A stretch of 64,000 nucleotides of DNA from Kiritimatiellia bacterium (GTDB lineage Bacteria; Verrucomicrobiota; Kiritimatiellia; JAAZAB01), in assembly GCA_050944835.1 (NCBI GenBank), contig JBMNRV010000011.1, positions 6,657-70,656 of the forward strand, written 5' to 3'. Under the pieces are notes generated by a model. The model was not told where the DNA came from. It did no database searches and worked only from the letters and a program-made list of their open reading frames with translations. Positions 1-52,458 of the stretch are shown one piece after another. How positions within the stretch are numbered: the first letter of the stretch is position 1; every line of letters starts with the position of its first letter. The position numbers and the translations under genes are program-made.

Positions 1-1749
1 CAGCCTTTGCATGCTTTTGACCGGTCATTATTGCGCGGCGGGCAAATCCGGGTGCGGCGTGCCCGTGATGGGGAAATAATGGTCACGCTTGACGGTCTGA
101 CCCGCAAGCTCAATTCATCCATGTTAGTGATTGCCGATGCTGAGCGGCCAGTGGCGCTGGCGGGTATCATGGGTGGAGAAGACAGTGGCATCCATGACGC
201 TACCCGCACGGTGGTTTTGGAAAGCGCTTGCTTCCAACGCAGTCTTGTCCGCCGTACCGGGCAAGCCCTGGGGTTGACTTCCGAAGCTACTGCCAGATTT
301 GAGCGCGGTGTGGACGCTATGCAGACAGACTGGGCTGCTCAACGCGCGGTGTCGTTGATGATCCAGTTGACCGGTGCGCGGCTGGCGGCGGCGCCGATTG
401 ATGTTTTCCTGTTGCCGCCGTCTCCACACAAAATCAAGTGCCGTTTCGACCGCTTGCGGCAAGGTCTGGGGCTGGATATATCCGACGAAACAATAATTGC
501 TATTTTCACTTCATTGGAATTACAGGTGTCGGAGCGTAGCCAAGAAAGCTGTGTCGTTTGCGCGCCGACCTTCCGTCCTGATTTGGAAGGCGAAGCCGAT
601 TTACTGGAAGAGGTTGCCCGGATGCATGGGTTGGATAAGCTGCCGACGCCGTCGGAGTTCCGGCAAGCCGCTACGCATGAGTCGCATGCCAGGGCTATGG
701 CCGTTATGCGCTTAAGGGCGGATTTGACGGGCATGGGGCTTACGGAAATCATGAATTACAGCTTTACCGGAGCGCGCTTGCTGGATTTGTGCGATGATAG
801 TTATCCGGAAAGGCGTGTGCCGATCCCGAATCCGGTCAGCGCTGAACACGGCCTGTTACGCAATTCGTTACTGCCGCAAATGCTGGAAACATTAGGACTG
901 AATCGCGCTCGCCAAATTCAAAATGCCGCCTTTTTTGAAATCGGCCGTGTGTTCTTTATGCCGGATGCCGCCGCTGACGCCGGACATGTCGCCGATCGTC
1001 CACCGTCTGGCGCCGCAGCGTCAGATGCGCTGTTGGCCGTCGAGATGGAGGTTTTATCCCTGGGGTTAATGGGCGCTGTTGGGCGGCCACCCTTGGATCA
1101 GCAGCGGCCTGTGACTGATGAAGAGGCTTGGTTGTGGCTGAAAGGCATATTGACCAACTTATGCCACGTGTTGAAAATCAATTTACCTGACAGTGGACGC
1201 GGCCCGTTTCGCCATGCGGCCCTGCAATTTGTTCCGGCGGAGAATGCTCCGCCCGGTTTCGTTTGGCCGAATCGCGCTATGTTTGCGTCTGGCAGTGGTT
1301 TTGTGGTGATGCTGGCTGGGCGTCCGGTCGGCCGGGCCGGATTGATTAAGCCGGAATTGCGTCGGGAATGGCGGATACATGAGCCGTTGCCTGTGGCGGA
1401 GCTGGCTATGACGCCGTTGCTTGCCGGTGTGGATGCGGTGTGCTCACCTGAAGCGCTGCCGATATACCCATCTGTGCAGCGCGACTTGGCTATGCTTGTG
1501 CCGCCGTCTTTGACGCATGCCCGCGTTTTAGAGGTTATTGAAAAATTAGCAACACCGGAATTGACGGACATAAAACTTTTTGATATATTCAAAGGCAAGC
1601 AGATAGGAGCGGGTTATAAAAGCCTGGCTTATACGCTGACTTACCGTTCCGACGGTAAGACCTTGACGGATGAGGAAGTCAATGAAATGCATGCCATCAT
1701 CTTGAAAGGGTTACAGAAGGAATTGCAGGTGGAAATAAGGGTTGGATAG
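1..1749 (+). CDS. pheT: Phenylalanine--tRNA ligase beta subunit (5'-truncated by window)
   Basis: B3/B4 (ALAGIMGG, ARFERGVD), B5 (PTFRPDL..EADLLEEVARMHG) and C-terminal FDX-ACB domain (YPSVQRDLA, KSLAYTLTYR, TLTDEEVN). Confidence 0.97.
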   Translation, partial: QPLHAFDRSLLRGGQIRVRRARDGEIMVTLDGLTRKLNSSMLVIADAERPVALAGIMGGEDSGIHDATRTVVLESACFQRSLVRRTGQALGLTSEATARFERGVDAMQTDWAAQRAVSLMIQLTGARLAAAPIDVFLLPPSPHKIKCRFDRLRQGLGLDISDETIIAIFTSLELQVSERSQESCVVCAPTFRPDLEGEADLLEEVARMHGLDKLPTPSEFRQAATHESHARAMAVMRLRADLTGMGLTEIMNYSFTGARLLDLCDDSYPERRVPIPNPVSAEHGLLRNSLLPQMLETLGLNRARQIQNAAFFEIGRVFFMPDAAADAGHVADRPPSGAAASDALLAVEMEVLSLGLMGAVGRPPLDQQRPVTDEEAWLWLKGILTNLCHVLKINLPDSGRGPFRHAALQFVPAENAPPGFVWPNRAMFASGSGFVVMLAGRPVGRAGLIKPELRREWRIHEPLPVAELAMTPLLAGVDAVCSPEALPIYPSVQRDLAMLVPPSLTHARVLEVIEKLATPELTDIKLFDIFKGKQIGAGYKSLAYTLTYRSDGKTLTDEEVNEMHAIILKGLQKELQVEIRVG

Positions 1750-2074
1750 CGGTGTTTAGCCGAGAAAATCGGTCGTGCAGGGTTTGGGAAAGATTTTCAG
1801 CATGGCGAAATTGATAATATGTTTCTTCTCAGTTGCGCAGACTGTGATATGCGTTGCTGTTGCCGGCGTCAGGTGTTTGTGTTGGACGTCGGTTTTGCGG
1901 TCATATTCCGGGGGAATGGGTTTGGCGTGTGTCAAACCCGCAGTGTCACGTTGGCTCCCCGGGTTTATCATGCGGGATGGCGCCCGATATGCGCGGGGCT
2001 GTCCGCCATGTCTGTTCTTTCATAGTCAATCGGTTTTTGCCGTGCATCCGTAAGGATGATGCATTAAAAAGATC

Positions 2075-2253
2075 GAATACCCTGCCTGGTGCGTGGTTGG
2101 GCCTGTTTCTCTGACCCATTAACGATCAAACAGGGAGTCGGATGCAGATGGAAGCTGCATGCCCTTCACGGGGAAGCGGATTCTGGCTGCTATGGCGCCC
2201 ACTTGGTTTTATCGGAACAGATAAAGGTTCGTAACGGCCAAGGTGGGGTATTC
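2075..2253 (+). ncRNA. ssrS: 6S RNA
   Basis: 179-nt segment whose ends pair (GAATACCCTGCCTGG / CCAAGGTGGGGTATTC). It has 6S-like internal motifs (ATCAAACAGGGAG, GCCCAC, GGTTC), is followed by a T-run and lies upstream of a 5-FTHF cyclo-ligase/rny locus, a known ssrS context. Not confirmed by a covariance model. Confidence 0.8.
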
Positions 2254-2274
2254 CTTTTTTTATGGGCAAATGCG

Positions 2275-3651
2275 ATGGACTTTTTTGAAACAATCCCCGA
2301 GAACTTGCCGGCTAAAGCCCCCCTCGCCGCAAGAATGCGTCCGCGCACGCTGGATGAAATTATTGGACAGGATCATCTGCTTGCCCCGGGCATGCTCCTG
2401 CGTCGCGCTGTGGAATCCGACCGCCTCGGCAGTATCATTCTTTACGGGCCGCCAGGCTGCGGCAAGACATCGCTGGCCGAAGTGATAGCTGGGATTACCC
2501 GCCGCCGGTTTGAGCGGATCAGCGGCGTGATCGCTAATATCGCCACTTTGCGGGATATTTTGCAGACCGCTTCCCAGCGCCGTCAGCGCGATGGCACGGA
2601 AACTATCCTGTTCATTGACGAAATTCACCACTTTAACAAGTCGCAGCAGGATATTCTGCTGCCATATGTGGAAGAAGGCGCGGTCACGTTGATCGGCGCT
2701 ACGACGCATAACCCATTTTTCTTCATTAACAGCCCGTTGGTTTCACGCTCCCAGATTTTTGAATTACATGCGCTTAGCGAAGACTCCGTCAAACTGATTT
2801 TGCAGCGCGCTTTACAGGATGCCGAAAATGGCTTGGGATCGCGCAATATCCGCGCGGATGACGACGCTTTGGCGCATCTGAGCTCAGTCTGTGAAGGCGA
2901 TGTCCGCCGTGCATTGAATGCCTTGGAAATTGCCGCGCTGACAACGCCACCAGGCACGGATGGTGTTGTGCATATTACCCGGCGCGTCGCCGAAGAGTCC
3001 ATTCAGAAAAAGGCGATACTGTACGATCGTGACGAAGATGGACATTATGACACCATTTCCGCTTTTATCAAAAGTGTGCGCGGTTCCGATCCGCATGCCG
3101 CTATATACTGGCTGGCTAAAATGCTGGAGGCCGGCGAGGACCCGCGATTCATTGCCCGCCGTCTGATAATCCTGGCCTCTGAGGACATCGGCAATGCCGA
3201 TCCGCGGGGATTATTGATGGCCAATGCAGCCAAGGAAGCTGTGCTCTTTATCGGCATGCCCGAAGCGCGGATTGTTTTGGCTCAGGTAGTGACTTATCTG
3301 GCGTGTGCGCCGAAAAGCAATGCGTCATATATAGCGCTGGAGAAAGCCATGCAGGATGTCAAGAAGGGGCGGGTGCTGCCTGTGCCCAAGCACCTGCGCG
3401 GCGCCAATTATCGCGGCGCGGAAAAACTCGGCCATACCGGCTATCGCTATGCTCATGATTTTGAAGGCCACGTAGTGGATCAGGAGTATATCCCGACTTC
3501 CGCCGTGTATTACACGCCGGGAGATCAGGGATATGAAGTATATATCCGGCAGCAAATGGAACGCTGCGCGGAAATACGCCGCAAGCAAAGACAGGCGGCA
3601 CGCCAGGGCGCGAAGTCGGCCGGGAAGGAAAATGCGCCGCCGGATCGGTGA
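2275..3651 (+). CDS. rarA: Replication-associated recombination protein A (MgsA/RarA AAA+ ATPase)
   Basis: PLAARMRP, Walker A GPPGCGKT, FIDEIH, GATTHNP, HYDTISAFIKSVRGSD; start set at ATG 2275, downstream of the 6S RNA. Confidence 0.95.
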   Translation: MDFFETIPENLPAKAPLAARMRPRTLDEIIGQDHLLAPGMLLRRAVESDRLGSIILYGPPGCGKTSLAEVIAGITRRRFERISGVIANIATLRDILQTASQRRQRDGTETILFIDEIHHFNKSQQDILLPYVEEGAVTLIGATTHNPFFFINSPLVSRSQIFELHALSEDSVKLILQRALQDAENGLGSRNIRADDDALAHLSSVCEGDVRRALNALEIAALTTPPGTDGVVHITRRVAEESIQKKAILYDRDEDGHYDTISAFIKSVRGSDPHAAIYWLAKMLEAGEDPRFIARRLIILASEDIGNADPRGLLMANAAKEAVLFIGMPEARIVLAQVVTYLACAPKSNASYIALEKAMQDVKKGRVLPVPKHLRGANYRGAEKLGHTGYRYAHDFEGHVVDQEYIPTSAVYYTPGDQGYEVYIRQQMERCAEIRRKQRQAARQGAKSAGKENAPPDR

Positions 3652-6337: not shown

Positions 6338-6413
6338 GGTGTAGTAACTCCGCAGTATTAACCTGTCTGATAGCCGCAAGGTAGTATAAATTGCGCGTTA
6401 GCCAAGTCAAACT

Positions 6414-7475
6414 TTATCCAGGGATAAAACTTTCGCGTCCAGTGAGCGCCAGGATGGTTTCCGCCAGCAGTTTGACCGCGTTATCCAGATCGCGTAACGA
6501 GATGACTTCCACCGGCGAGTGCATGTAACGGTTAGGAATGCTGACCAGAGCGGCGGCGCAGCCGCCGCGCGCGAGTTGCATGACATTGGCGTCGGTGCCA
6601 GTGCCGCGCGGTTCAGATTGCATTTGGTATTTGATGCGGCATCGGCGCGCAGTGTCGCAAAGCATCTGACCCAACACGGGGTTGATGTTCGGGCCGCGAT
6701 GCAGAATTGGTCCGAGGCCCAGGCTGATGTCGCCGGTTTTCTTAGGGTTGCCACCGGGAAAATCAGAGGTGAAGCCGACATCAACGGCAATGCCGATATG
6801 CGGCTGTATGTTATAGGCGCTTGTAACCGCGCCGCGCAAGCCGATCTCTTCCTGCACGGTGGAGACGGCATGCACCGCCACGTTCAACTTTTTGCCACGC
6901 AATGCGCCCAGTGTTTCCGTAATCACCCAAGCGCCGCAGCGGTCGTCAAAAGCCCGGCCGGCTGCCAGGTTGTTGCGCATTTCGACAAAATCGCCTACTA
7001 CCACCACGGAGTCGCCAATTTCCACCGCCTTTAACGCGTCCTTACGATCCTTGGCGCCGATGTCAATCCAGAGCTCATCAAGTTTGATGGCTTTATTGCG
7101 GTCTTCCGGTTGAAGCAGATGTATCGGTTTCCGTCCGATGACGCCACGCACATCGCCGTGGCGGGTGCGGATGCTGACGTGCTGCCCCACGGCGATCGGG
7201 GCATCCCAACCGCCGATGGCGGCAAAATAGATAAAGCCTTTTTCGTCAACATGGGTAATCATCAATCCGATTTCATCCACATGCCCGGCCAGCATGACGC
7301 GGACTGCGGCCTTGGGGTTCAGGACGCCGGACACATTGCCATGCACATCCGTGTGTACGTTGTCGGTGAATTTTTTCATCCGGGCGCGGATGATTTTCTG
7401 GGCCGGCGCCTCAAATCCGGAAGGCGATGGTTGTTGCATTAATTCACGCAGAAATTTCAGGCGGTCAGATTGCAT
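6414..7475 (-). CDS. M42 family metallo-aminopeptidase
   Basis: AGHVDEIG, FDDRCG, QEEIGLRGA, GTDA, YMHSPVE. Confidence 0.93.
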   Translation of the reverse strand: MQSDRLKFLRELMQQPSPSGFEAPAQKIIRARMKKFTDNVHTDVHGNVSGVLNPKAAVRVMLAGHVDEIGLMITHVDEKGFIYFAAIGGWDAPIAVGQHVSIRTRHGDVRGVIGRKPIHLLQPEDRNKAIKLDELWIDIGAKDRKDALKAVEIGDSVVVVGDFVEMRNNLAAGRAFDDRCGAWVITETLGALRGKKLNVAVHAVSTVQEEIGLRGAVTSAYNIQPHIGIAVDVGFTSDFPGGNPKKTGDISLGLGPILHRGPNINPVLGQMLCDTARRCRIKYQMQSEPRGTGTDANVMQLARGGCAAALVSIPNRYMHSPVEVISLRDLDNAVKLLAETILALTGRESFIPG

Positions 7476-7591
7476 GCTTATTCTCCTATGTATAAAACAG
7501 CCGCGCCGGCGTGGTGATGATTGCCAGCCTCAATAAGGCAGACTATTGCAAACACGGTTGCATATGTCAAGCTTGCCAGCGCAGTCTTGAT

Positions 7592-8049
7592 GGGGGGAGA
7601 ACCACGGATGGACACGGATGAACACTGATGGAGGAGGAGCAAGATAAACCGCCAAGACGCCAAGAAAATGAGAGAATGAAACCGCAGATCCCGGATAATT
7701 GGCCACAAAGATGCAGGCACAAAGGGATAGGACTTAACCGCCAAGAAGACGCCAAGGATGCCAAGGTGGTAGAAAAGGATTTGCCACGAACCCATGCTGC
7801 GCTGACCGGCATCTGCCGGTCTGGCGGATCGGCTGACACCCTGATACGCGAATTCATTCGTGTATCCGGGTGTCCACCGATCCATGTCCGCATAGCGGAC
7901 AGCGCGGCATTTGTGGCTAATCCTTTCCCTATCCGTGTCCATCCGTGTGCATCCGTGGTTCTTTCCCTCCGATTTTCCTTTCCTCATCTGCGTCCATCTG
8001 CGGTCTCAATACTTTATCTCGTTTCCTGAATTTCAAATGCCGTTTTTAG
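7592..8049. repeat. Composite modular intergenic repeat, copy L1 (contains 117-bp hairpin core 7794-7910)
   Basis: Near-identical to 8962-9365 over most of its length; left modules AACCACGGAT, AACCGCAGAT and GCCACAAA have inverted partners on the right. Confidence 0.9.
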
Positions 8050-8847
8050 GCGCAGGGTGAGGCCATCTCTTGCGGCGCATGCGCCGGGAAAGGCTTTGCG
8101 CACGGCACGAGCGATGGCATCAATTTGACGGTCGGAGCGGGTAGGATCGTGGTGGGTCAGGATTAATTTCCGGACACCGGCGGCGCGCGCCAGATGCACT
8201 CCATGTTTCCATGTGCCGTGCCCCCAACCACGCCGGTGCGGATATTCACGTGGTGTGAATTGAGCGTCAAAAATCAAGCAATCGGCATTCCGGCAAAATT
8301 GGATGAATTGCGCATCAATCGGGCCGGCATCCGGTTCGTAATCCGTGGCGATTACAATCGTGTGGCTCGGAGTGTCCAGACGGTAAGCCAGGCATGGCTG
8401 CGGATGCGGTACTGGCATCCAGGTGACGCGGATACCGAACAAGGTCAGGCGCCCGGACGTTGGCAATTCGCGCCAACTGATTCGCGCGCCAAGCCGGTCA
8501 AGTTGCAAGGGCCAATAGGGTGGGGCGGTCAGCCGCCGTAAAGCCGCTCGCTGGGGGCCATCCACCAGAAAAGTAACGCGCGCTTGTGGTTGATACAACG
8601 GCGCAAATGTCGGCAGCCCCACGATGTGATCAAGGTGCAGATGCGTAAAAAAAACAGCGATTGGCAGGTTGGCTGGTGTGTCCCGTCCGGCTTGGATTGC
8701 GCCGGTGCCGGCGTCGAACATCAGCAGCCCGCCGGGCGCGCGCATGGTAAAGCAGGTGGTATGCCCGCCATAGCGGCGGAATTTTGCGCCGCACACCGGG
8801 TGAGTGCCACGTGTGCCGTAAATCGTAAAACTGTATTCATCCGCCAT
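8014..8847 (-). CDS. MBL-fold metallo-hydrolase (RNase Z/BN-like)
   Basis: YGTRGT, YGGHTTC, FDAGTG, THLHLDH, GWGHG, LTHHDP. Confidence 0.9.
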   Translation of the reverse strand: MADEYSFTIYGTRGTHPVCGAKFRRYGGHTTCFTMRAPGGLLMFDAGTGAIQAGRDTPANLPIAVFFTHLHLDHIVGLPTFAPLYQPQARVTFLVDGPQRAALRRLTAPPYWPLQLDRLGARISWRELPTSGRLTLFGIRVTWMPVPHPQPCLAYRLDTPSHTIVIATDYEPDAGPIDAQFIQFCRNADCLIFDAQFTPREYPHRRGWGHGTWKHGVHLARAAGVRKLILTHHDPTRSDRQIDAIARAVRKAFPGACAARDGLTLRLKTAFEIQETR

Positions 8848-8888
8848 AGGGGCATCCTGTCCAAGGAGGTGGTTTTCTAATCCTGGAA

Positions 8889-8917
8889 AGCCTAAGCCAT
8901 GATCGCGAGAATGTCAA
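8889..8917 (-). promoter_or_regulatory. Putative sigma70 promoter for the MBL gene
   Basis: TTGACA-17 bp-TAGGCT on the minus strand, ~40 bp upstream of the start. Confidence 0.45.
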
Positions 8918-8939: not shown

Positions 8940-9365
8940 CTAAAAACCTAATGTTGGCAACGGGGGAGAACCACGGATGGACACGGATGAACACTGATGG
9001 AGGAGGAGCGAGATAACCGCCAAGAAAATGAGAGAATGAAACCGCAGATCCCGGATAATTGGCCACAAAGAGGCACAAGATTCACAAGATTTTTCAGAAC
9101 ACGCTGCGCTGACCGGCATCTGCCGGTCTGGCGGATCGGCTGACACCCTGATACGCGAATTCATTCGTGTATCTGGGTGTCCACCGATCCATGTCCGCAT
9201 AGCGGACAGCGCGGCATTTGTGGCTAATCCTTTCCCTATCCGTGTCCATCCGTGTGCATCCGTGGTTCTTTTCCTCCGGTTCTCCTCTCCTCATCTGCGC
9301 CAATCTGCGTCCATCTGCGGTTTCAACTTTTTATCTAGTTTCCTGAATTTCAAATGTCGTTTTAG
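8940..9365. mobile_element. Composite modular repeat L2, putative MITE with imperfect terminal inverted repeats (core 9101-9217)
   Basis: Direct copy of L1; ends CTAAAAAC..GTTGGCAA and TTTCAAATGTCGTTTTAG. The repeat is directly seen; mobility is inferred. Confidence 0.6.
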
Positions 9366-10197: not shown

Positions 10198-13100
10198 ATG
10201 AACACAAGAAACATTCTGGCGCTCGTTGTCGCGGGTCTGTTTGTAGTCACCGCCACCACCGCCCCTGCCGGAGAGAAGGCGAATCCGAACACGAACTCCT
10301 ACATCAACTTCTCAAGCCCTTTAGTATTCAGAGTCAAACCGCAAGTGCAATCGTGGAACGGGACGGTTCAGTGGTCCATCGACGCGAAGCACTGGTTTAA
10401 CTACACCTCCGGCGACATGGAAGCGGGGCCGGACGGCCTAGGCTCATACTTGTTGTACGTCCGTGGAACGGGCAACTCCCGGATTACAGGCTTCGATCAA
10501 CCGGGCTGGATCATTAACGGCAAGGGGCCGATCGTCTGCTCCGGCAACTTGGAAACCATGCTTGACTACACGACGGTGGCTAATGGTGGGCATCCCCTAA
10601 TGGATACCTACTGCTTCGCAAACCTCTTCCAGAACTGTACGAATCTCAGTAGCGCGCCGTTGCTCCTGGCGGCGAATCTGACGAATAGTTGTTGTAGTTC
10701 CATGTTCTCCGGCTGCACGAGGCTGACGAATGCGCCCGTGTTACCCTCCACGAATCTGGCTAACCAATGTTACTACAACATGTTCTCCGACTGCTCGAGC
10801 CTGACGATCGCACCCGAGCTGCCCGCCACGACGCTGGCGCTCGGCTGCTACGCCTTCATGTTCAACCACTGCTCGAGCCTGAAAAAGGCGCCAACGCTGC
10901 CGGCCACGACGCTGGCGCCCGCCTGCTACCGCCAAATGTTCAGTTTCTGCGACAGCCTGACGAATGTGCCAACGCTGCCGGCCACTACGCTTGCATCCCT
11001 CTGCTACCAGCACATGTTCCACTTCTGTTCAGGACTGACGGAGTTACCGGCGCTCCCGGCGACGAATCTGGCCGAGAATTGCTACTACGAAATGTTCAAG
11101 GCTTGCACGGGCATCAAAGTGTACACCGCAGGACCTGGAACACCGTGGAGCATCCCGAGCGGTGCGACTCCCGCAACGAACTGGAACTATAGGATGTTCA
11201 ATGGCACAAGCGGCGACTTCCGAGACGACCCGGAGATCGGTACCACGTACTACTACGTGTCGTCAGAGCTATTCCCAGCCCCGAGTGCGTACCTCACCTT
11301 CTCCAGCACGAACACCTTCACGGTCACGCCGCCGACCAATTCATGGGACGGGACGCTTTACTGCTCCACTGACGCGACAAATTGGTCAAGCTTCACCACC
11401 AACGGCGCGACCGCGACGAACAACGGCGCCGGGGAATACAAGCTCTACCTCTGCGGGGCGAGCAACACCTACATTACCGGCTTCGACAGCCTGTTCAACT
11501 CCGGTTTGACGATTACCGGCGCCGGGTCGGTCGCCTGCTCCGGCAACATCGAGACCTTGCTGGATTATGCGACGGTGGCCGACGGCGGGCATCCGGTGAT
11601 GACCGAATACTGTTTCTTGAACCTATTCAAAAATTGTAAGGCGCTCGTCAGCGCACCGGCGTTACCGGCCATGACTCTGACCAATTCCTGCTACCTGTCA
11701 ATGTTCTCCGGCTGCACGAGTCTGACGAGCGCGCCGGCGCTGCCGGCCACAAATCTGGCCGTTTCCTGTTACCGCCATATGTTCGCCGACTGCACGAGTC
11801 TGACGAGCGCGCCAGCGCTACCGGCCTCGAATCTGACCAGTTTCTGCTACAACTACATGTTCATCAGTTGCTCAGGGTTGAAGCAGGCGCCGACGCTGCC
11901 GGCGACGACGCTGGCCACCTCCTGCTACGACGGCATGTTCAATAGCTGCACAAGCCTGACCAATGCTCCGGAGCTGCCAGCTGTGAATCTGGCCGAGAAG
12001 TGCTACCAAGGCATGTTCAACGCCTGCACAGGGCTGAAGCAGGCGCCGGTACTGCCGGCCACAGCGCTGGCTACCAGCTGCTACGGCCACATGTTCTACA
12101 GCTGTACTGGGTTGACCGAGGCGCCGGCGCTGCCGGCCACGACGCTAACCAATTCCTGCTACAACTACATGTTCGCCGGCTGCACGGGCCTGACACGCTT
12201 GCCGGTTCTGCCCGCCACGAATCTGGCAGCCAACTGCTACAACAGCATGTTCTACGGCTGTACTGGTATTAAGCTGAACACCGAAGGTCCCGGACCGGAA
12301 TGGGGCATTCCGGCAGGTGCGGTGGAAGCAGATAACTGGAACGCCGACATGCTTCTCGACACGGGCGGCACGTTCACCAACGACCCGGTGATTGGTACCA
12401 CGTACTACTACGTGCCGTCGGCCCCGGCAGCGCCTTCCGGTGTATCCGCCAGTGATGGAACTTTTACCAATAAAATCAGGATCACTTGGAATGCAGTTAA
12501 TTTTGCCACTGGTTATCAGCTCTGGCGGCATACGGCTGACAATTCCGCGGCGGCAACGGAGATCGGATCCACTACCGGAACCACCTATGACGATACTACC
12601 ACGGTGGCCAAAACCACGTATTATTATTGGGTCAAGGCCACGAATGCCGCCGGTGTGAGCGGCTTCAGCGCCTCGGATTCCGGCTGGCGGGATGAGCCGA
12701 AACCACCGAAACCGCCGAAACCAGCAGCGCCAACCGGTGTTGGGGCCAGTGACGGCGTCTATACCGACAAGGTCCGTGTCACATGGAAAGCTTCGGCGGG
12801 AGCTACCAGTTACGTGATTTATCGTCACACAATCAACAAGCCCAGCGCGGCAGCTCGGCTTGGAACGTCTGCCACCACAAGCTATGACGACAAAACTGCC
12901 AAGACCGAACTCACCTATTATTATTGGGTGAAGGCGCTCAATGAGTCCGGCGCCAGCGGTTTCAGCGCCTTTGACACCGGTTATCCTGGCGTGGTCGGTC
13001 CATTGATTATGGTAAATGGCATGGTGGGGAATAATATCCGTGTCTCCGCCAATAAGCCCATTACTGTAGCCGCGACGATGATGAATCTGCCGCGTGCCTA

Positions 13101-13389
13101 CTTCGGGGTTCCAGTGGATTGGTGGGTGGCGGCTTATGTCCATCAGGGTGGATTGTGGTTCTACTTTGACACTAACTTTAACCTGGTACAGTTTGACGGC
13201 AATCTGGCTAATGTCCGCCCGGCCTATCAAGGGGCGCTGTATAACGTCCCGCCACTGACACTGGTTGAAAATATGTTGTTGCCGCGCGGGACGTACAACA
13301 TCTGGTTTGCCGTGGATTATCCCATGGATGGCAGGATTGACCTGAATGGGACGGTATTGCTTTCGACGACCACAATTGTGGTTGAATGA
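10198..13389 (+). CDS. Large secreted protein: two modules of 26-aa Cys-containing LRR-like (BspA-like) repeats, two FN3-like domains and a C-terminal domain
   Basis: Signal peptide; APxLPATxLAxxCYxxMFxxCTxL repeats with 78-bp period; YYYWVKA FN3 motifs; RBS AAGGA. Confidence 0.85.
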   Translation: MNTRNILALVVAGLFVVTATTAPAGEKANPNTNSYINFSSPLVFRVKPQVQSWNGTVQWSIDAKHWFNYTSGDMEAGPDGLGSYLLYVRGTGNSRITGFDQPGWIINGKGPIVCSGNLETMLDYTTVANGGHPLMDTYCFANLFQNCTNLSSAPLLLAANLTNSCCSSMFSGCTRLTNAPVLPSTNLANQCYYNMFSDCSSLTIAPELPATTLALGCYAFMFNHCSSLKKAPTLPATTLAPACYRQMFSFCDSLTNVPTLPATTLASLCYQHMFHFCSGLTELPALPATNLAENCYYEMFKACTGIKVYTAGPGTPWSIPSGATPATNWNYRMFNGTSGDFRDDPEIGTTYYYVSSELFPAPSAYLTFSSTNTFTVTPPTNSWDGTLYCSTDATNWSSFTTNGATATNNGAGEYKLYLCGASNTYITGFDSLFNSGLTITGAGSVACSGNIETLLDYATVADGGHPVMTEYCFLNLFKNCKALVSAPALPAMTLTNSCYLSMFSGCTSLTSAPALPATNLAVSCYRHMFADCTSLTSAPALPASNLTSFCYNYMFISCSGLKQAPTLPATTLATSCYDGMFNSCTSLTNAPELPAVNLAEKCYQGMFNACTGLKQAPVLPATALATSCYGHMFYSCTGLTEAPALPATTLTNSCYNYMFAGCTGLTRLPVLPATNLAANCYNSMFYGCTGIKLNTEGPGPEWGIPAGAVEADNWNADMLLDTGGTFTNDPVIGTTYYYVPSAPAAPSGVSASDGTFTNKIRITWNAVNFATGYQLWRHTADNSAAATEIGSTTGTTYDDTTTVAKTTYYYWVKATNAAGVSGFSASDSGWRDEPKPPKPPKPAAPTGVGASDGVYTDKVRVTWKASAGATSYVIYRHTINKPSAAARLGTSATTSYDDKTAKTELTYYYWVKALNESGASGFSAFDTGYPGVVGPLIMVNGMVGNNIRVSANKPITVAATMMNLPRAYFGVPVDWWVAAYVHQGGLWFYFDTNFNLVQFDGNLANVRPAYQGALYNVPPLTLVENMLLPRGTYNIWFAVDYPMDGRIDLNGTVLLSTTTIVVE

Positions 13390-13410: not shown

Positions 13411-13600
13411 GAACCGCAGATTTAAGCAGATGGAGGAACCACGGATTCACACGGATGGACACGGATAGGATTGAACTGCCAGTGCGGCTTCGTACCGCCA
13501 GTGCGGCCTCGTACCGCCAAGAAGGACGCCAAGGGGATAGGTCTGGTCCCTGGATCAGTCTGATCGGACTGATCGGTCTGATCCCCCAAGACACCAAGGA
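13411..13600. repeat. Modular repeat cluster L3
   Basis: AACCGCAGAT, AACCACGGAT x3, 19-bp unit x2, CCGCCAAG..CGCCAAG, GATCAGTCTGATCGG modules. Confidence 0.85.
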
Positions 13601-21590: not shown

Positions 21591-21722
21591 TGTGATTTAG
21601 ACATAACACCGGAGTTCATACTGCGGGATGACACTGGAAAATCGTTGTTTTGAAACTTATTCACAGCATCCCATAGAAGACAAAAAGTTGGAATAATCTT
21701 CGGTGGAATTGCGTAATTGGAT

Positions 21723-22037
21723 AAACCACCAAGGTAAGACGCCAAGGATGCCAAGGTGATAGAAAAGGATTTGCCACGAACGCATGCTGCGCTGACCGGC
21801 ATCTGCCGGTCAGCGCAGCATGCGTTCGTGGTCTGAAAAATCTTGTGAATCTTGTGCATCTTTATGGCCAATTATCCGGGATCTGCGCCAATCGGCGGTT
21901 TCATTCTTCGTCTGTTTATTTTTTGCATTCTTGGCGGTTCAATCCAATCCGGACTCTTCTCTATCTGATTCTCATCCGTGTCCATCCGTGTGCATCCGTG
22001 GTTCCTCTGGTTCTCACCGTTTTATCTCGTTTCCTGA
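21723..22037. repeat. Composite repeat L5 with perfect 58-bp hairpin (21774-21831)
   Basis: Perfect 28-bp arms with a 2-nt loop; left flank matches L1 and right flank is the reverse complement of the L2 left arm. Confidence 0.9.
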
Positions 22038-22055
22038 TTTTTATGATTGATAGAT

Positions 22056-26288: not shown

Positions 26289-27554
26289 ATGCGTTTCATT
26301 TTAAAAAAATGGGCCGGACGGATGCTGCAGCCGGCAGTGGCGTTGCTCGCGGCAGCGGCGGCACTGTGTGTTTTCCCCTGGGAGACGGCGCCGGCGTTGC
26401 CGGCGGCGACCAGTCCTTGGCTCACCCTGTGCGCGGTATTGGCGACGCGCCGGTTAAGCATTTTGGCGCTGGCGGCTTTGCCATTACTGATAGTGTCCAT
26501 TTTGCGCGGACGCTGGTTTTGCCGTGTCCTTTGTCCAATGGGCTGGTTGCAGCGGCTGGCGGAGTGGCGCCGGCCGATACGCGGAAAATTGCTGAAGAAG
26601 TGCCCGCCGGCAGGACAGTGGATTATGGCGGCTGGACTTGGTGGCGCGTTGTTTGGGATGCCATTATTTCTGGGATGGGACCCGCTGGTGTTATGGACGG
26701 CTTTTTTTTCGGCATGGCGGCCGTCGGCGCCGTATTTTCATGAATGGCGATTAGCGGCAGGGTTGCCATTATTGCTGTTATTGGCTTGGCTTTTTCCGCG
26801 CTTATGGTGTGTGCGTTTATGTCCTCTGGGCGCCTGGATGGACGTTTGCCACCGCGTTGCCGTTTTTGCTGGCAAGCAGAGGGATGGCTTGCGCTGTCGC
26901 ACTGTTACTGCAAGCTCGTCGAAGTCAAATGTTGGCGCCGGCGCCAGCGAGGTGTTACCCCAAATGAGCGGCATCAGCCGGCGCGGATTTGTCGGTTTAG
27001 CAGGTGGTTTTCTGGCCGCCGGAGCGCTACGGGGCTGGAGCGCGCAGCGCGGCGCAAAATGCTTGCGCCCGCCGGGCGCGGTTGCGGAAGACCGTTTCAA
27101 TGGCATGTGTGCGCGCTGCGGAAATTGTATGCGCGCCTGTCCATCGGGCATTATCCGTCCGGGGTTATTGGAAGGTGGATTGGCTGGCGCTTTGACACCC
27201 GTGATAGAATTTCAGGATGATTATTGCCATGAAACCTGTGCCGCCTGCGCCCAGGTGTGTCCCACGGGGGCGATCCGGCGCTTTCCACTGGCGCGCAAGC
27301 CGGATTACAAAATCGGCACGGCCCGGGTGATTCACGATAAATGTCTGGCTTGGAAACATGGCGAATATTGCATGGTATGCGATGAGTTTTGCCCTTACAA
27401 AGCTGTGCGCGTGGTCAAGCACGGCGGTGTGAATTGTCCGGAGGTGGACGAGGCCCTTTGTCGTGGCTGCGGCGCCTGTCAGTGTCAATGCCCGGCTGAT
27501 CCGGGGCCGGCTATTGTGGTTGAACGCGACGGAGCAGCAACGGAAAGAAATTAG
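26289..27554 (+). CDS. Membrane 4Fe-4S polyferredoxin (NapH/MauN fused to NapG/MauM-like)
   Basis: TM helices with CxxxCPxG twice, LRPPGA and several CxxCxxCxxxCP motifs. Confidence 0.88.
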   Translation: MRFILKKWAGRMLQPAVALLAAAAALCVFPWETAPALPAATSPWLTLCAVLATRRLSILALAALPLLIVSILRGRWFCRVLCPMGWLQRLAEWRRPIRGKLLKKCPPAGQWIMAAGLGGALFGMPLFLGWDPLVLWTAFFSAWRPSAPYFHEWRLAAGLPLLLLLAWLFPRLWCVRLCPLGAWMDVCHRVAVFAGKQRDGLRCRTVTASSSKSNVGAGASEVLPQMSGISRRGFVGLAGGFLAAGALRGWSAQRGAKCLRPPGAVAEDRFNGMCARCGNCMRACPSGIIRPGLLEGGLAGALTPVIEFQDDYCHETCAACAQVCPTGAIRRFPLARKPDYKIGTARVIHDKCLAWKHGEYCMVCDEFCPYKAVRVVKHGGVNCPEVDEALCRGCGACQCQCPADPGPAIVVERDGAATERN

Positions 27555-27869
27555 CCACAAAGATGCACAAGATGCACAAAGGGGAATGAAAGATTGAACC
27601 GCCAAGCCGCCAAGGTGTCAGAAGAGGATTCGCCACGGACGCATGCCGCGCTGTCCGCTATGCGGACATGGATCGGTGGACACCCGGATACACGAATGAA
27701 TTCGCGTATAAGGGTGTCAGCCGATCCGCCAGACCAGCAGATGCCGGTCAGCGCGGCAGGCCATTCTAGTCCGCCGGTATCTCTGGTAAAATCTGCGTTC
27801 ATCTGCGCCAATCGGCGGTTTCATTTTTCGTCTGTTTCCTTTTTGCGTTCTTGGCGACTTGGCGGTTAA
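27551..27869. repeat. Composite repeat L8 with inverted 117-bp core (27643-27759)
   Basis: Left flank resembles L1 and L5 but the core is the reverse complement of 7794-7910. Confidence 0.9.
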
Positions 27870-27885
27870 AATCTCCTTCTGATTA

Positions 27886-27907
27886 AATATTCATCTTATG
27901 GGATGAC
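27886..27907. promoter_or_regulatory. Candidate operator AAATATTCATCTTATGGGATG
   Basis: Near-palindromic; recurs at 34081 and 35816. Confidence 0.5.
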
Positions 27908-27932
27908 ACAGAAAACAAATAAAGGTTACAAA

Positions 27933-29162: not shown

Positions 29163-29238
29163 CCGGTGCGGCCTCGCACCGCCAGTGCGGCCTCGCACCG
29201 CCAGTGCGGCCTCGCACCTTGCCAACTGCCGTTTAAGG
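29163..29238. repeat. 3 x 19-bp tandem mini-hairpin repeat plus terminal module (L9)
   Basis: CCAGTGCGGCCTCGCACCG x3 starting right after the stop codon, then TTGCCAACTGCCGTTTAAG. Confidence 0.9.
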
Positions 29239-32580: not shown

Positions 32581-32876
32581 TAGCCCCAACGGGGCATGAT
32601 ATACCCCCGCCATTGCGGGTAAGCATTCCAAGGCAACGCCTTGAATGGGATAGCCCCAACGGGGCGTTACATACCCCGCCATTGCGGGCAAGCATTCTAG
32701 GGCAACGCCCTCGGTTAGGGTCCCAACAATTCACATTAGCCCTTATAGGGCGTGACATATTTGTATTCAACTGGTCTGAAGGTTCTCTATGTCACGCCCT
32801 TTCAGGGCTGTTTTCATATTTTTCCGTTAATCCCAGGGCGTTGCCCTGGGCTGGTATGTCATGCCCTTTCAGGGCT
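32581..32876. repeat. REP/REPIN-like palindrome cluster
   Basis: 70-bp tandem duplication (32581, 32651); AGCCC..GGGC and AGGGCAACGCCCT palindromes arranged symmetrically. Confidence 0.8.
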
Positions 32877-35570: not shown

Positions 35571-35795
35571 CCACAAGGGGGAGGAGAAAGTAAACCGCAG
35601 ATTTACGCAGATTGGCGCAGATAATCAGCCACAAAGATGCAAAAAAAGCACAAAGGGGGAGTGTGTCACGCAGATGTGTGAGCCACACTGGCGGTGTGAG
35701 CCACACTGGCGGTGTGAGCCACACTGGCGGTGCGAGCCACACTGGCGGTGCGAGCCACACTCCCTGCCGTCCCTTCCGCCCCTGCTGTCCCTTCC
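35568..35795. repeat. Modular cluster L13 with 5 x 18-bp tandem repeat (35676-35761)
   Basis: GTGYGAGCCACACTGGCG x5 (last copy partial) after AGCCACAA and AACCGCAGAT modules. Confidence 0.9.
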
Positions 35796-40679: not shown

Positions 40680-40791
40680 AGCCTGAAAGGGCGTGGTGAC
40701 ATATGAACATAACTATGTCACGCCCCGTTAGGGCTAATCCACCCAGAGGGCCAGTGGGATCACAATCCCCATTCTACGCCCTGTTGGGGCT
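40680..40791. repeat. REP/REPIN-like palindromes (same family as 32581-32876)
   Basis: AGCCTGAAAGGGCGTGGTGACATA..TATGTCACGCCCCGTTAGGGCT and GCCCTGTTGGGGCT. Confidence 0.7.
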
Positions 40792-51826: not shown

Positions 51827-51903
51827 TGGCGCGCCCGGCAGGACTCGAACCTGCAACCCTCTGATCCGAAGTCAGATGCTCTGTCCAATTGAGCTACGGG
51901 CGC
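51827..51903 (-). tRNA. tRNA-Arg, anticodon TCG
   Basis: GCGCCCGTAGCTCAATTGGACAGAGCATCTGAC-TTCGGA-TCAGAGG..GGTTCGAGTCC..GCGCGCCA; 77 nt with encoded CCA. Confidence 0.95.
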
Positions 51904-52372: not shown

Positions 52373-52458
52373 TGGTGCCGGAGGAGGGAGTTGAACCCTC
52401 ATGGTGTTGCCACCGCTGGATTTTGAGTCCAGTGCGTATGCCATTTCGCCACTCCGGC
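52373..52458 (-). tRNA. tRNA-Leu, anticodon CAA
   Basis: GCCGGAGTGGCGAAATGGCATACGCACTGGACTCAAAATCCAG, long variable arm, GGTTCAACTCCC..CACCA. Confidence 0.95.

Follow-up and report, generated by a model that had tools for sequence, protein, structure and literature searches.

The insertion sequences of the IS4 family encode a DDE transposase and duplicate 9 bp of their target, as in IS10 and IS50, and the interiors of MITEs are normally free to drift. Hairpin-forming, MITE-like repeats include Correia/NEMIS of Neisseria and ERIC/IRU of the enterobacteria, which can be co-transcribed and can shift the ends of genes. The BOX elements of Streptococcus pneumoniae and the BIMEs of E. coli are mosaic repeats assembled from a few modules, while REP/RAYT systems are defined by repeats which flank the RAYT gene. 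To our knowledge, HUH/Y1 elements make neither terminal inverted repeats nor target duplications. In the available text of a preprint (bioRxiv 10.1101/2021.07.10.451892), REPINs are said to be long-lived within a lineage. Searches of titles and abstract openings found no literature on intergenic repetitive DNA in Kiritimatiell*, and those on bacterial foldback or nested hairpin MITEs revealed nothing on the element described here.

The window analysed is a stretch of 64,000 nucleotides from an uncultured Kiritimatiellia bacterium and contains several copies of a 117-nt core, which is probably the conserved, self-folding central module of MITEs found in the intergenic DNA of one Kiritimatiellia genus. 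Rather than a new enzyme substrate, the elements represent a new family of a known kind, made up of an IS4-derived MITE together with mosaic derivatives and a second family of MITEs; their distinctive feature is a branched, strongly conserved interior module common to two carriers. Like IS4-derived MITEs, they are short, non-coding, multicopy and intergenic and vary in presence between orthologous sites; their terminal inverted repeats are the same as in a 1.45-kb element of the IS4 family, and they make a 9-bp duplication. Unlike these, it is the interior and not the ends that is best conserved across species, and the window genome has a second element family, with unrelated ends, that contains the same interior.

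Comparison with Correia/NEMIS and ERIC/IRU, by their descriptions, shows that all are self-complementary intergenic repeats of about 100-150 nt that occur in both orientations. The described repeats, however, are single long hairpins and are themselves the transposed unit, whereas the core is branched, with three hairpins on a closing stem, and lies in the middle of a 0.33-0.63-kb carrier. As in BOX and the BIMEs, the arrays of the window genome are mosaics in which a few modules alternate in orientation, with variable numbers of short tandem units, but the modules are different, some arrays have transposon ends and target duplications, and no RAYT association of the core was found. On the available part of the account by Bertels and Rainey, the resemblance to REPIN/RAYT systems consists of hairpin repeats kept within a lineage in tens to hundreds of copies, together with a RAYT-like gene in the genome; the differences are that this gene is without flanking repeats, that its distribution does not follow that of the core and that the carriers make duplications.

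The initial annotation of the window had described a core closing three hairpins, two near-identical copies of it, an inverted copy and a copy reduced to a palindrome, and these four statements were all correct, positions included. The first two copies (7794-7910 and 9101-9217) lie in a direct repeat of 210 nt (7793-8002 and 9100-9309), and the reverse complement of 7795-7910 is found at 27643-27758 (116 nt, 97% complementary), where it is preceded by a similar left flank. The palindrome at 21774-21831 has the loop TC between its perfect 28-nt arms and is without the 79 nt of 7822-7900. Between 7746-7821, at core copy 1, and 21736-21811, at this collapsed apex, identity is 97%. The coordinates of the features are given in Table 1.

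Table 1 Composite repeats and core copies in the window.
Feature	Position	Strand	Description
Composite repeat 1	7585..8049	+	465 bp; carries core copy 1; right end T2
Composite repeat 2	8962..9365	+	surrounds core copy 2; right end T2
Composite repeat 3	21662..22041	+	carries collapsed apex; right limit approximate
Composite repeat 4	27547..27911	+	surrounds core copy 3; left limit approximate
Core copy 1	7794..7910	+	100% identical to copy on contig C88; closing stem 10 bp; hairpin 1, 8 bp; hairpin 2 long, interrupted, 7+7+10 bp; hairpin 3, 6-7 bp
Core copy 2	9101..9217	+	96% identity over 210 nt
Core copy 3	27643..27759	-	inverted relative to arms A (left) and D (right)
Collapsed apex	21774..21831	.	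only closing stem and hairpin 1; 28-nt-arm perfect palindrome

The minimum-energy fold predicted for the 117-nt core consists of exactly the closing stem and three hairpins that had been drawn in the initial annotation. Its energy is -45.9 kcal/mol as DNA (z -8.46) and -80.7 kcal/mol as RNA (z -10.18), and in neither case did any of 200 shuffled sequences fold as well. No Rfam family was detected on the core at the gathering thresholds. With E values of up to 10 allowed, the only matches were to RsmY (14.6 bits, 57 needed) and mir-59 (13.9 bits, 80 needed), with E values of 0.3 and 8.4, which is at the level of chance; the claim that the core is covered by no Rfam family is borne out by this search.

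Across the copies the stems are conserved and the loops are variable. In 47 copies from five species, 92.5% of cells pair, compared with 29-39% when the partners are slid. Changes on both sides were detected at nine base pairs versus 4.9 expected, a number reached in 2 of 500 shuffles. Compensatory changes were from C-G to U-A in three copies and from C-G to G-C in four, with two single cases in hairpin 1. Because double changes in DNA palindromes can arise in one step by self-templated repair, they are no proof of selection on an RNA, and the data fit both selection for pairing and hairpin correction at the DNA level. Among stem mismatches, the numbers of G-T/T-G (119) and A-C/C-A (97) are similar, which indicates that neither strand is favoured.

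The genome from which the window derives is a bin of 2.62 Mb in 94 contigs that is 93% complete. A BLAST search of the bin with the core identified 75 copies aligned over at least 95 nt, divided 41 to 34 between the strands, and 17 partial copies; the count is a lower bound since several of the partial copies are located at contig ends. The frequency of the repeat is far beyond chance, and its 75 copies have a mean pairwise identity of 0.88. When long ORFs were mapped crudely, every copy proved to be intergenic; the 34 apparent overlaps are with ORFs of 110-180 amino acids that traverse the repeat or with three larger ORFs extended at the 5′ end. The orientation of the core relative to the neighbouring genes is random: of 67 copies with two neighbours, 22 have the same direction as the genes and 21 the opposite, 16 lie in divergent gaps and 8 in convergent gaps. 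No promoter-like or terminator-like site was found in the core or adjoining it. About 3.4% of the genome lies in 13-mers present in at least 12 copies.

The core is present in all four of the other species of the genus that were searched. A partial core (positions 27-117), cut by a contig end, was found in one further genus of the family, such that the core occurs in 5 of 24 genomes of the family and, overall, in 6 of 41 genomes from two genera. No copy was found in the 16 genomes searched that belong to other families in the class. A 28-nt core pattern searched for in 185,579 species genomes was found in only 14 stretches, all in four bins of the genus, and there was no match to the core in the plasmids and phages searched. 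Position 10 is T in 70 of the 75 copies of the window genome and C in all 24 sister-species copies. Such lineage-specific marks suggest that each lineage has amplified its own version of the core and argue against frequent recent exchange.

When the window genome is compared with the sister species, the core has a mean identity of 0.82-0.94, the left arm 0.50-0.58 and the right arm 0.33-0.42, with values below 0.25 further out. The consensus cores of the two differ at about five positions. By comparison, orthologous genes are 72-84% identical as DNA and one protein is 64-71% identical. That the core is the part kept best, despite its interior position, points to a function beyond that which the MITE reading alone would provide, and the conservation of its primary sequence suggests constraint, either for the element or for the host.

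The sister species carry the core within an element of 330-555 bp, at a distance of about 173 nt from one of its ends; each side of the element ends in a fixed 17-nt terminus, the two being in inverted orientation. In 14 copies with both ends, which are 331-555 bp long, the flanking 9-mers match at 9/9 positions in seven, 8/9 in one, 7/9 in one and at most five in the other five; when the flanks were shifted by 20 nt as a control, matches were at four positions or fewer. A trace of the parent element is found in the window genome, where contig C70 encodes the C-terminal 151 residues of a DDE transposase, which score 31 bits with Pfam DDE_Tnp_1 (cut-off 23), and has an IS4-type terminus about 130 nt downstream. 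The best NCBIfam match of this remnant is to the IS4 family with 76.9 bits, which is under the cut-off of 115 because only the last 70 positions of the profile remain.

Metagenome contigs were scanned with the C70 fragment, which revealed 80 loci encoding relatives, mostly of 55-81% identity. At least one IS4-type terminus is present at 54 of these loci. Both termini are present at 27 of them, 1.43-1.55 kb apart, around a single frame of 320-480 amino acids, and perfect 9-bp duplications were found in 8 of 26 scored pairs. These elements are IS4-family insertion sequences of about 1.45 kb with the same ends as the element of the sister species. The shared ends and the 9-bp duplication indicate that the latter is a MITE of an IS4-family insertion sequence. 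No intact parent was detected in the five genomes of the genus with the C70 fragment as query; multicopy elements are often missing from metagenome bins. The window genome has single IS4-type termini and no pair of them 150-900 bp apart. Two of the four composites of the window end in such a single terminus, composite 3 on the left (21662-21677) and composite 4 on the right (27894-27911).

A second carrier, specific to the species and with termini T1 and T2, is found in the window genome. There are 42 T1..T2 pairs, which enclose 155-633 bp and most often 234 bp; the 17 that hold a core are all at least 430 bp, so that 17 of the 75 cores lie within T1/T2 elements. The flanking 7-mers match at six or more of seven positions in 11 of the 42 pairs (in shifted controls 1, 0, 0 and 0 of 42), and the length of the duplication is 7-8 bp. 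T1 and T2 are only loosely inverted with respect to each other, with the first 6-8 nt and scattered positions in common. Inside these elements, short tandem repeats with a period of 9-10 nt form inverted modules arranged as a ladder, which is topped by the core, by a single hairpin or by nothing. Three loci have the entire left half (T1 to the core) in common at 90-94% identity, which suggests that the core-bearing composite itself has been copied. At three loci the 234-bp element is inserted in the loop of hairpin 1, with a 5-nt duplication.

T1 was not found in five relatives with up to three mismatches allowed, and the parent of the T1/T2 element was not found in the window genome. The only inter-terminus intervals of 2.8-4.8 kb hold ordinary genes and no transposase (phosphoglucose isomerase, a helicase, a methyltransferase-like protein, a restriction-modification pair and a secreted protein of 1067 amino acids), and the search gave no match to Pfam Transposase_mut. 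One rve ORF and one IS701-like ORF were rejected as parents as they have no such termini nearby. Multicopy proteins were also considered as hidden transposases, and those scanned proved to be ordinary enzymes or to have no Pfam match. Recognisable termini are present on both sides in 17-18 of the 75 cores (against 15 of 2000 random sites), on one side in 22-24 and on neither in 33-36. The small number with both suggests that most copies in this genome reside in rearranged mosaics without definable limits.

Composite 1 provides an example of an insertion that can be compared with its empty site. A 6-bp direct repeat, GCGCAG, flanks it at 7579-7584 and 8050-8055, and there is no T1 on its left. 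It is located in the gap of 538 nt (7476-8013) between an M42 peptidase gene (6414-7475) and an MBL-fold gene (8014-8847, - strand), where four sister species lack it. At the sister loci L013, L014 and L016 the orthologous gap measures about 125 nt; the alignment of the fourth, L015, leaves about 197 nt. In terms of the relatives' genes the insert (7585-8049) lies within the 3′ end of the MBL-fold gene, and the last 11 codons and the stop of the ORF at 8014-8847 are supplied by the composite. The converse is seen at a sister locus (L003) that is filled where the corresponding gap of the window genome, on contig C21, is 50-77 nt.

The modules of composite 2 are those of composite 1 except for the arm to the left of the core, which is of type B instead of A. 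Composite 3 ends on the right in a truncated T2-like module, and the stop codon of the ORF at 26289-27554 is within the first module of composite 4. As expected of MITEs, the elements are short, non-coding and present in many copies, with terminal inverted repeats and a duplication of fixed length, and they are present or absent at orthologous sites, both at 7476-8013 compared with the four sister loci and at L003 compared with C21. An autonomous element with the same ends was found for the IS4-type ends and not for T1/T2.

To either side of the core, homology between the copies extends for a further 100-300 nt, but the copies matched on the left differ from those matched on the right. The flanking modules are few: arms A, B and C on the left of the core and, on the right, either reverse complements of these or the non-palindromic arms D and E. 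The surrounding arms contain tandem motifs of 9-10 nt, about one helical turn. In 44 of 45 copies with D or E these are on the right of the core; D is on the left in one and E in none, and the remaining 30 copies, with right arms that are palindromic or unclassified, are uninformative on polarity. The sole exception is the window copy at 27643, where the inversion affects just the 97 nt between the halves of the closing stem, which are themselves in the usual position, indicating that the breakpoints lie within the 10-bp inverted repeat. This copy, which has substitutions of its own, is a single inversion bounded by that repeat and not a regular switch. The combination expected of an invertible switch, with both orientations common and a recombinase nearby, was not found, and the earlier proposal of an inversion site does not agree with a polarity of 44 to 1.

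At least eight different reduced or locally inverted derivatives of the core are present in the window genome. Forms with hairpin 1 only comprise two perfect or near-perfect palindromes and three with other junctions; further derivatives retain hairpin 3 only, hairpins 1 and 3, hairpins 2 and 3, hairpin 1 with an inverted hairpin 2, or shorter stumps. In the cleanest of them the breakpoints are exactly at the junction of the hairpins and the closing stem. The sister species have reduced forms of their own, one of which (L052) retains four nt of the left closing stem in a carrier surrounded by a perfect 9-bp duplication. The full core is the common form across all five species of the genus, and for this reason the palindrome at 21774, which had been interpreted as a vacant insertion site, is best read as a collapse product, one of at least eight derivatives with varied breakpoints. 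Its left flank is still 97% identical to the one beside copy 1, which shows the collapse to be recent. On a smaller scale, hairpin 1 has the loop TC in 54 copies, GA, which is precisely the reverse complement, in 17 and another sequence in four, and these flips are the same sort of hairpin-templated change. What stands of the initial interpretation is that the structured DNA is tied to insertion, deletion and inversion; the vacant site, the inversion switch and the HUH enzyme are not supported.

The last of these had been proposed on the idea that the core is a structured substrate, in which case it would be a hairpin resembling REPINs or IS200/IS605 that an HUH (Y1) transposase copies in single-stranded form, using the simple palindrome as target. 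One RAYT-like protein is encoded in the window genome (contig C22, 34114-35232), which scores 22-24 bits with Pfam Y1_Tnp (cut-off 23) and 52.4 bits with the NCBIfam REP-associated tyrosine transposase (cut-off 80). Some RAYT-like match is present in all six core-bearing genomes, and the core is long-lived within its lineage, as are REPINs in the available text of the preprint mentioned above. However, no 13-mer of at least ten copies is present in the 900 nt that follow the RAYT-like gene or the 600 nt that precede it, and its homologues are found in 22 of 41 relatives (17 of 30 genera), compared with 6 of 41 (two genera) for the core. Sixteen genomes have the gene without the core, while G004, with 12 core matches, has only a RAYT match of E 2.5e-4. 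The carriers have inverted ends and duplications of 9 bp or 7-8 bp, contrary to HUH elements, and the reduced forms have many breakpoints instead of a single empty-site junction. A gene without flanking repeats, the mismatch in distribution and the ends and duplications of the carriers leave little room for an HUH mechanism for the carriers, and we consider this explanation very unlikely. An artefactual origin of the inverted and palindrome-only copies, from the assembly of a repeat-rich metagenome bin, is barely credible. The bin is in 94 contigs, many of which break inside repeats, and run X1 likewise has contigs that end at the borders of composite 1; yet both sites are inside one 74-kb contig with unique flanks, the inverted copy has its own substitutions, and collapsed forms recur elsewhere, including in a sister genome of 30 contigs and, at L052, with a perfect 9-bp duplication. 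Two separate observations concern the Y1-type genes: the RAYT-like protein of the window genome contains an H-V-H stretch, and a terminus-like motif 600 nt upstream of the Y1 gene of another genome (G002) proved to be the end of an unrelated MITE fragment.

Two explanations attribute the core to the host. A structured RNA, serving for example as a stabiliser of mRNA ends in either orientation, an RNase III target or a small RNA with the transposon as its vehicle, would be in keeping with the very stable RNA fold, with stems that are conserved where loops vary and show some compensatory changes, and with conservation above the level of coding DNA. In metatranscriptome run X3, contigs with core copies and flanks have depths of 17-25 and gene contigs of the same organism 7-9, but these RNA-library contigs overrun both ends of the core, may derive from DNA and have depths summed over many copies. 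Eight runs matched part of 6400-8900, and the four examined all consist of contigs, which show neither strand nor ends nor a discrete 117-nt species; error-free contigs of the peptidase gene are found in three metatranscriptome libraries. Against an RNA function are the equal frequency of G-U and A-C intermediates, the excess of divergent gaps (16) over convergent ones (8), the absence of strand bias relative to genes (22 versus 21), the lack of an Rfam family and the lack of a promoter-like or terminator-like site in or beside the core; on the last three a small RNA gene was rejected. The RNA explanation is, in our view, unlikely. If the core were instead a cruciform or four-way-junction site used by a host protein of chromosome organisation, replication or recombination, the repeats having been domesticated, then a DNA fold as significant as the RNA fold, the lack of strand preference, arms of tandem 9-10-nt motifs of about one helical turn and the strong conservation of primary sequence would all be expected. 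This is quite improbable given that no candidate DNA-binding protein was found, that copies land in the ends of genes and replace a C-terminus, that relatives have the same gaps without copies and that many copies are collapsed or truncated in the manner of selfish DNA.

The explanation we favour is that of a self-folding module at the centre of MITEs. The carriers would be moved by a DDE transposase supplied in trans, and their arms would be shuffled by recombination between copies. Hairpins may be extruded in single-stranded DNA at replication and lead to template switching, which in turn could flip the loops, reduce the apex to one hairpin and give rise to the single inversion across the 10-bp closing stem; in the collapse, the polymerase would skip across the folded junction from side to side. 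With regard to the conservation of the core, we would guess first at a role in cis that benefits the element, with use by the host second. A stronger proposal, which we make tentatively and regard as doubtful, is that the core is a functional branched DNA or RNA module under purifying selection that is kept through action in cis and has outlived its carriers, passing from an IS4-derived MITE to an unrelated MITE family. On this proposal the core might recruit a host or transposase factor to a fold resembling a four-way junction or, alternatively, shield long foldback elements from nucleases that cut hairpins.

These repeats break assemblies, give rise to spurious ORFs of 110-180 amino acids and supply stop codons and C-termini to real genes, and recognising them should improve gene calls in digester-derived Kiritimatiellia bins. 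The loop flips, the collapses that skip the junction and the inversion bounded by the stem would together form a natural record of hairpin-driven template switching. The interior of an IS4-derived MITE that is conserved above the level of coding DNA and recurs in a second carrier offers a testable case of selection on a payload. If true, this would mean that bacterial MITEs, the interiors of which are usually taken to be free to drift, can contain a conserved 'payload'.

The arms of the composites, the repeats that carry the 117-bp three-hairpin core, are formed by short tandem repeats with a period of 9-10 nt, which occur in four or five spellings with a common start and are arranged as inverted pairs. 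Across the genome, 13-mers of at least 12 copies cover about 3.4% of the sequence. The 18-19-nt unit, which forms tandem arrays of its own, has 13-mers reaching up to 113 copies in the genome and is joined to the core in two copies, where it replaces the first hairpin. The REP-like GC-rich hairpins have 13-mers at 40-64 copies in the genome, and none of these hairpins was seen adjoining the RAYT-like gene.

Features of the window and of other loci in G000, the 2.62-Mb bin containing it (C9, C22 and C91, contigs of G000; L029, fetched locus)
Feature	Location	Strand	Details
6S RNA	window 2076-2253	+	Rfam RF00013, 70.9 bits vs gathering score 46.4
Two tRNAs	window 51830-51903, 52376-52458	-	
Composite-arm short tandem repeats	window 7593-7647, 7931-7961, 9293-9323, 13553-13595, many more		
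REP-like short GC-rich hairpins	window 32735-32769, 40704-40738; genome-wide		fixed tail; separate families
18-19-nt tandem arrays	window 13479-13538, 29163-29222, 35676-35765		unit has own small hairpin
MBL-fold ORF	window 8014-8847	-	
ORF ending in composite 4	window 26289-27554	+	
Repeat protein ORF, 1063 aa	window 10198-13389	+	78-nt (26-aa) repeat, 11 copies, two blocks
RAYT-like protein, 372 aa	C22:34114-35232 (L029 970-2088)	-	
Inverted T2 pair	C9:60065-62861		two termini 2.8 kb apart, around two ORFs
IS701-like transposase ORF, 479 aa	C91:190-1626	-	NCBIfam 145 bits, under the 170 cut-off; contig 3 kb

Two real genes in the window have their 3' ends inside repeat modules. The insert supplies the final 11 codons and the stop of the MBL-fold ORF, and the first module of composite 4 (window 27547-27911) holds the stop of the other. 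The 1063-aa ORF is taken by us to resemble a leucine-rich-repeat surface protein.

The RAYT-like protein, the only one of its kind in the genome, has a RAYT-like Y1 domain at its N-terminus, followed by a C-terminal extension of approximately 150 aa with an internal duplicated peptide. Homologues were found in 22 of the 41 relatives. At the inverted pair of T2 termini (T2 being a terminus of the second MITE family), no target duplication was seen. One of the enclosed ORFs is, judging by its motifs, presumably a cytosine-5 DNA methyltransferase and the other is without a Pfam match; the locus may represent a restriction-modification pair lying between MITE ends. The IS701-like ORF has no studied terminus nearby.

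Comparison of window 6400-8900, which includes composite 1 (window 7585-8049), with the contigs of sequencing run X1 gave a summed contig depth of 900-3400 over the repeat vs 15-17 on the unique flanks, a depth that does not equal copy number, and the contigs end at the repeat edges. This pattern is consistent with a community that holds the repeat in large numbers, perhaps spread over more than one species.
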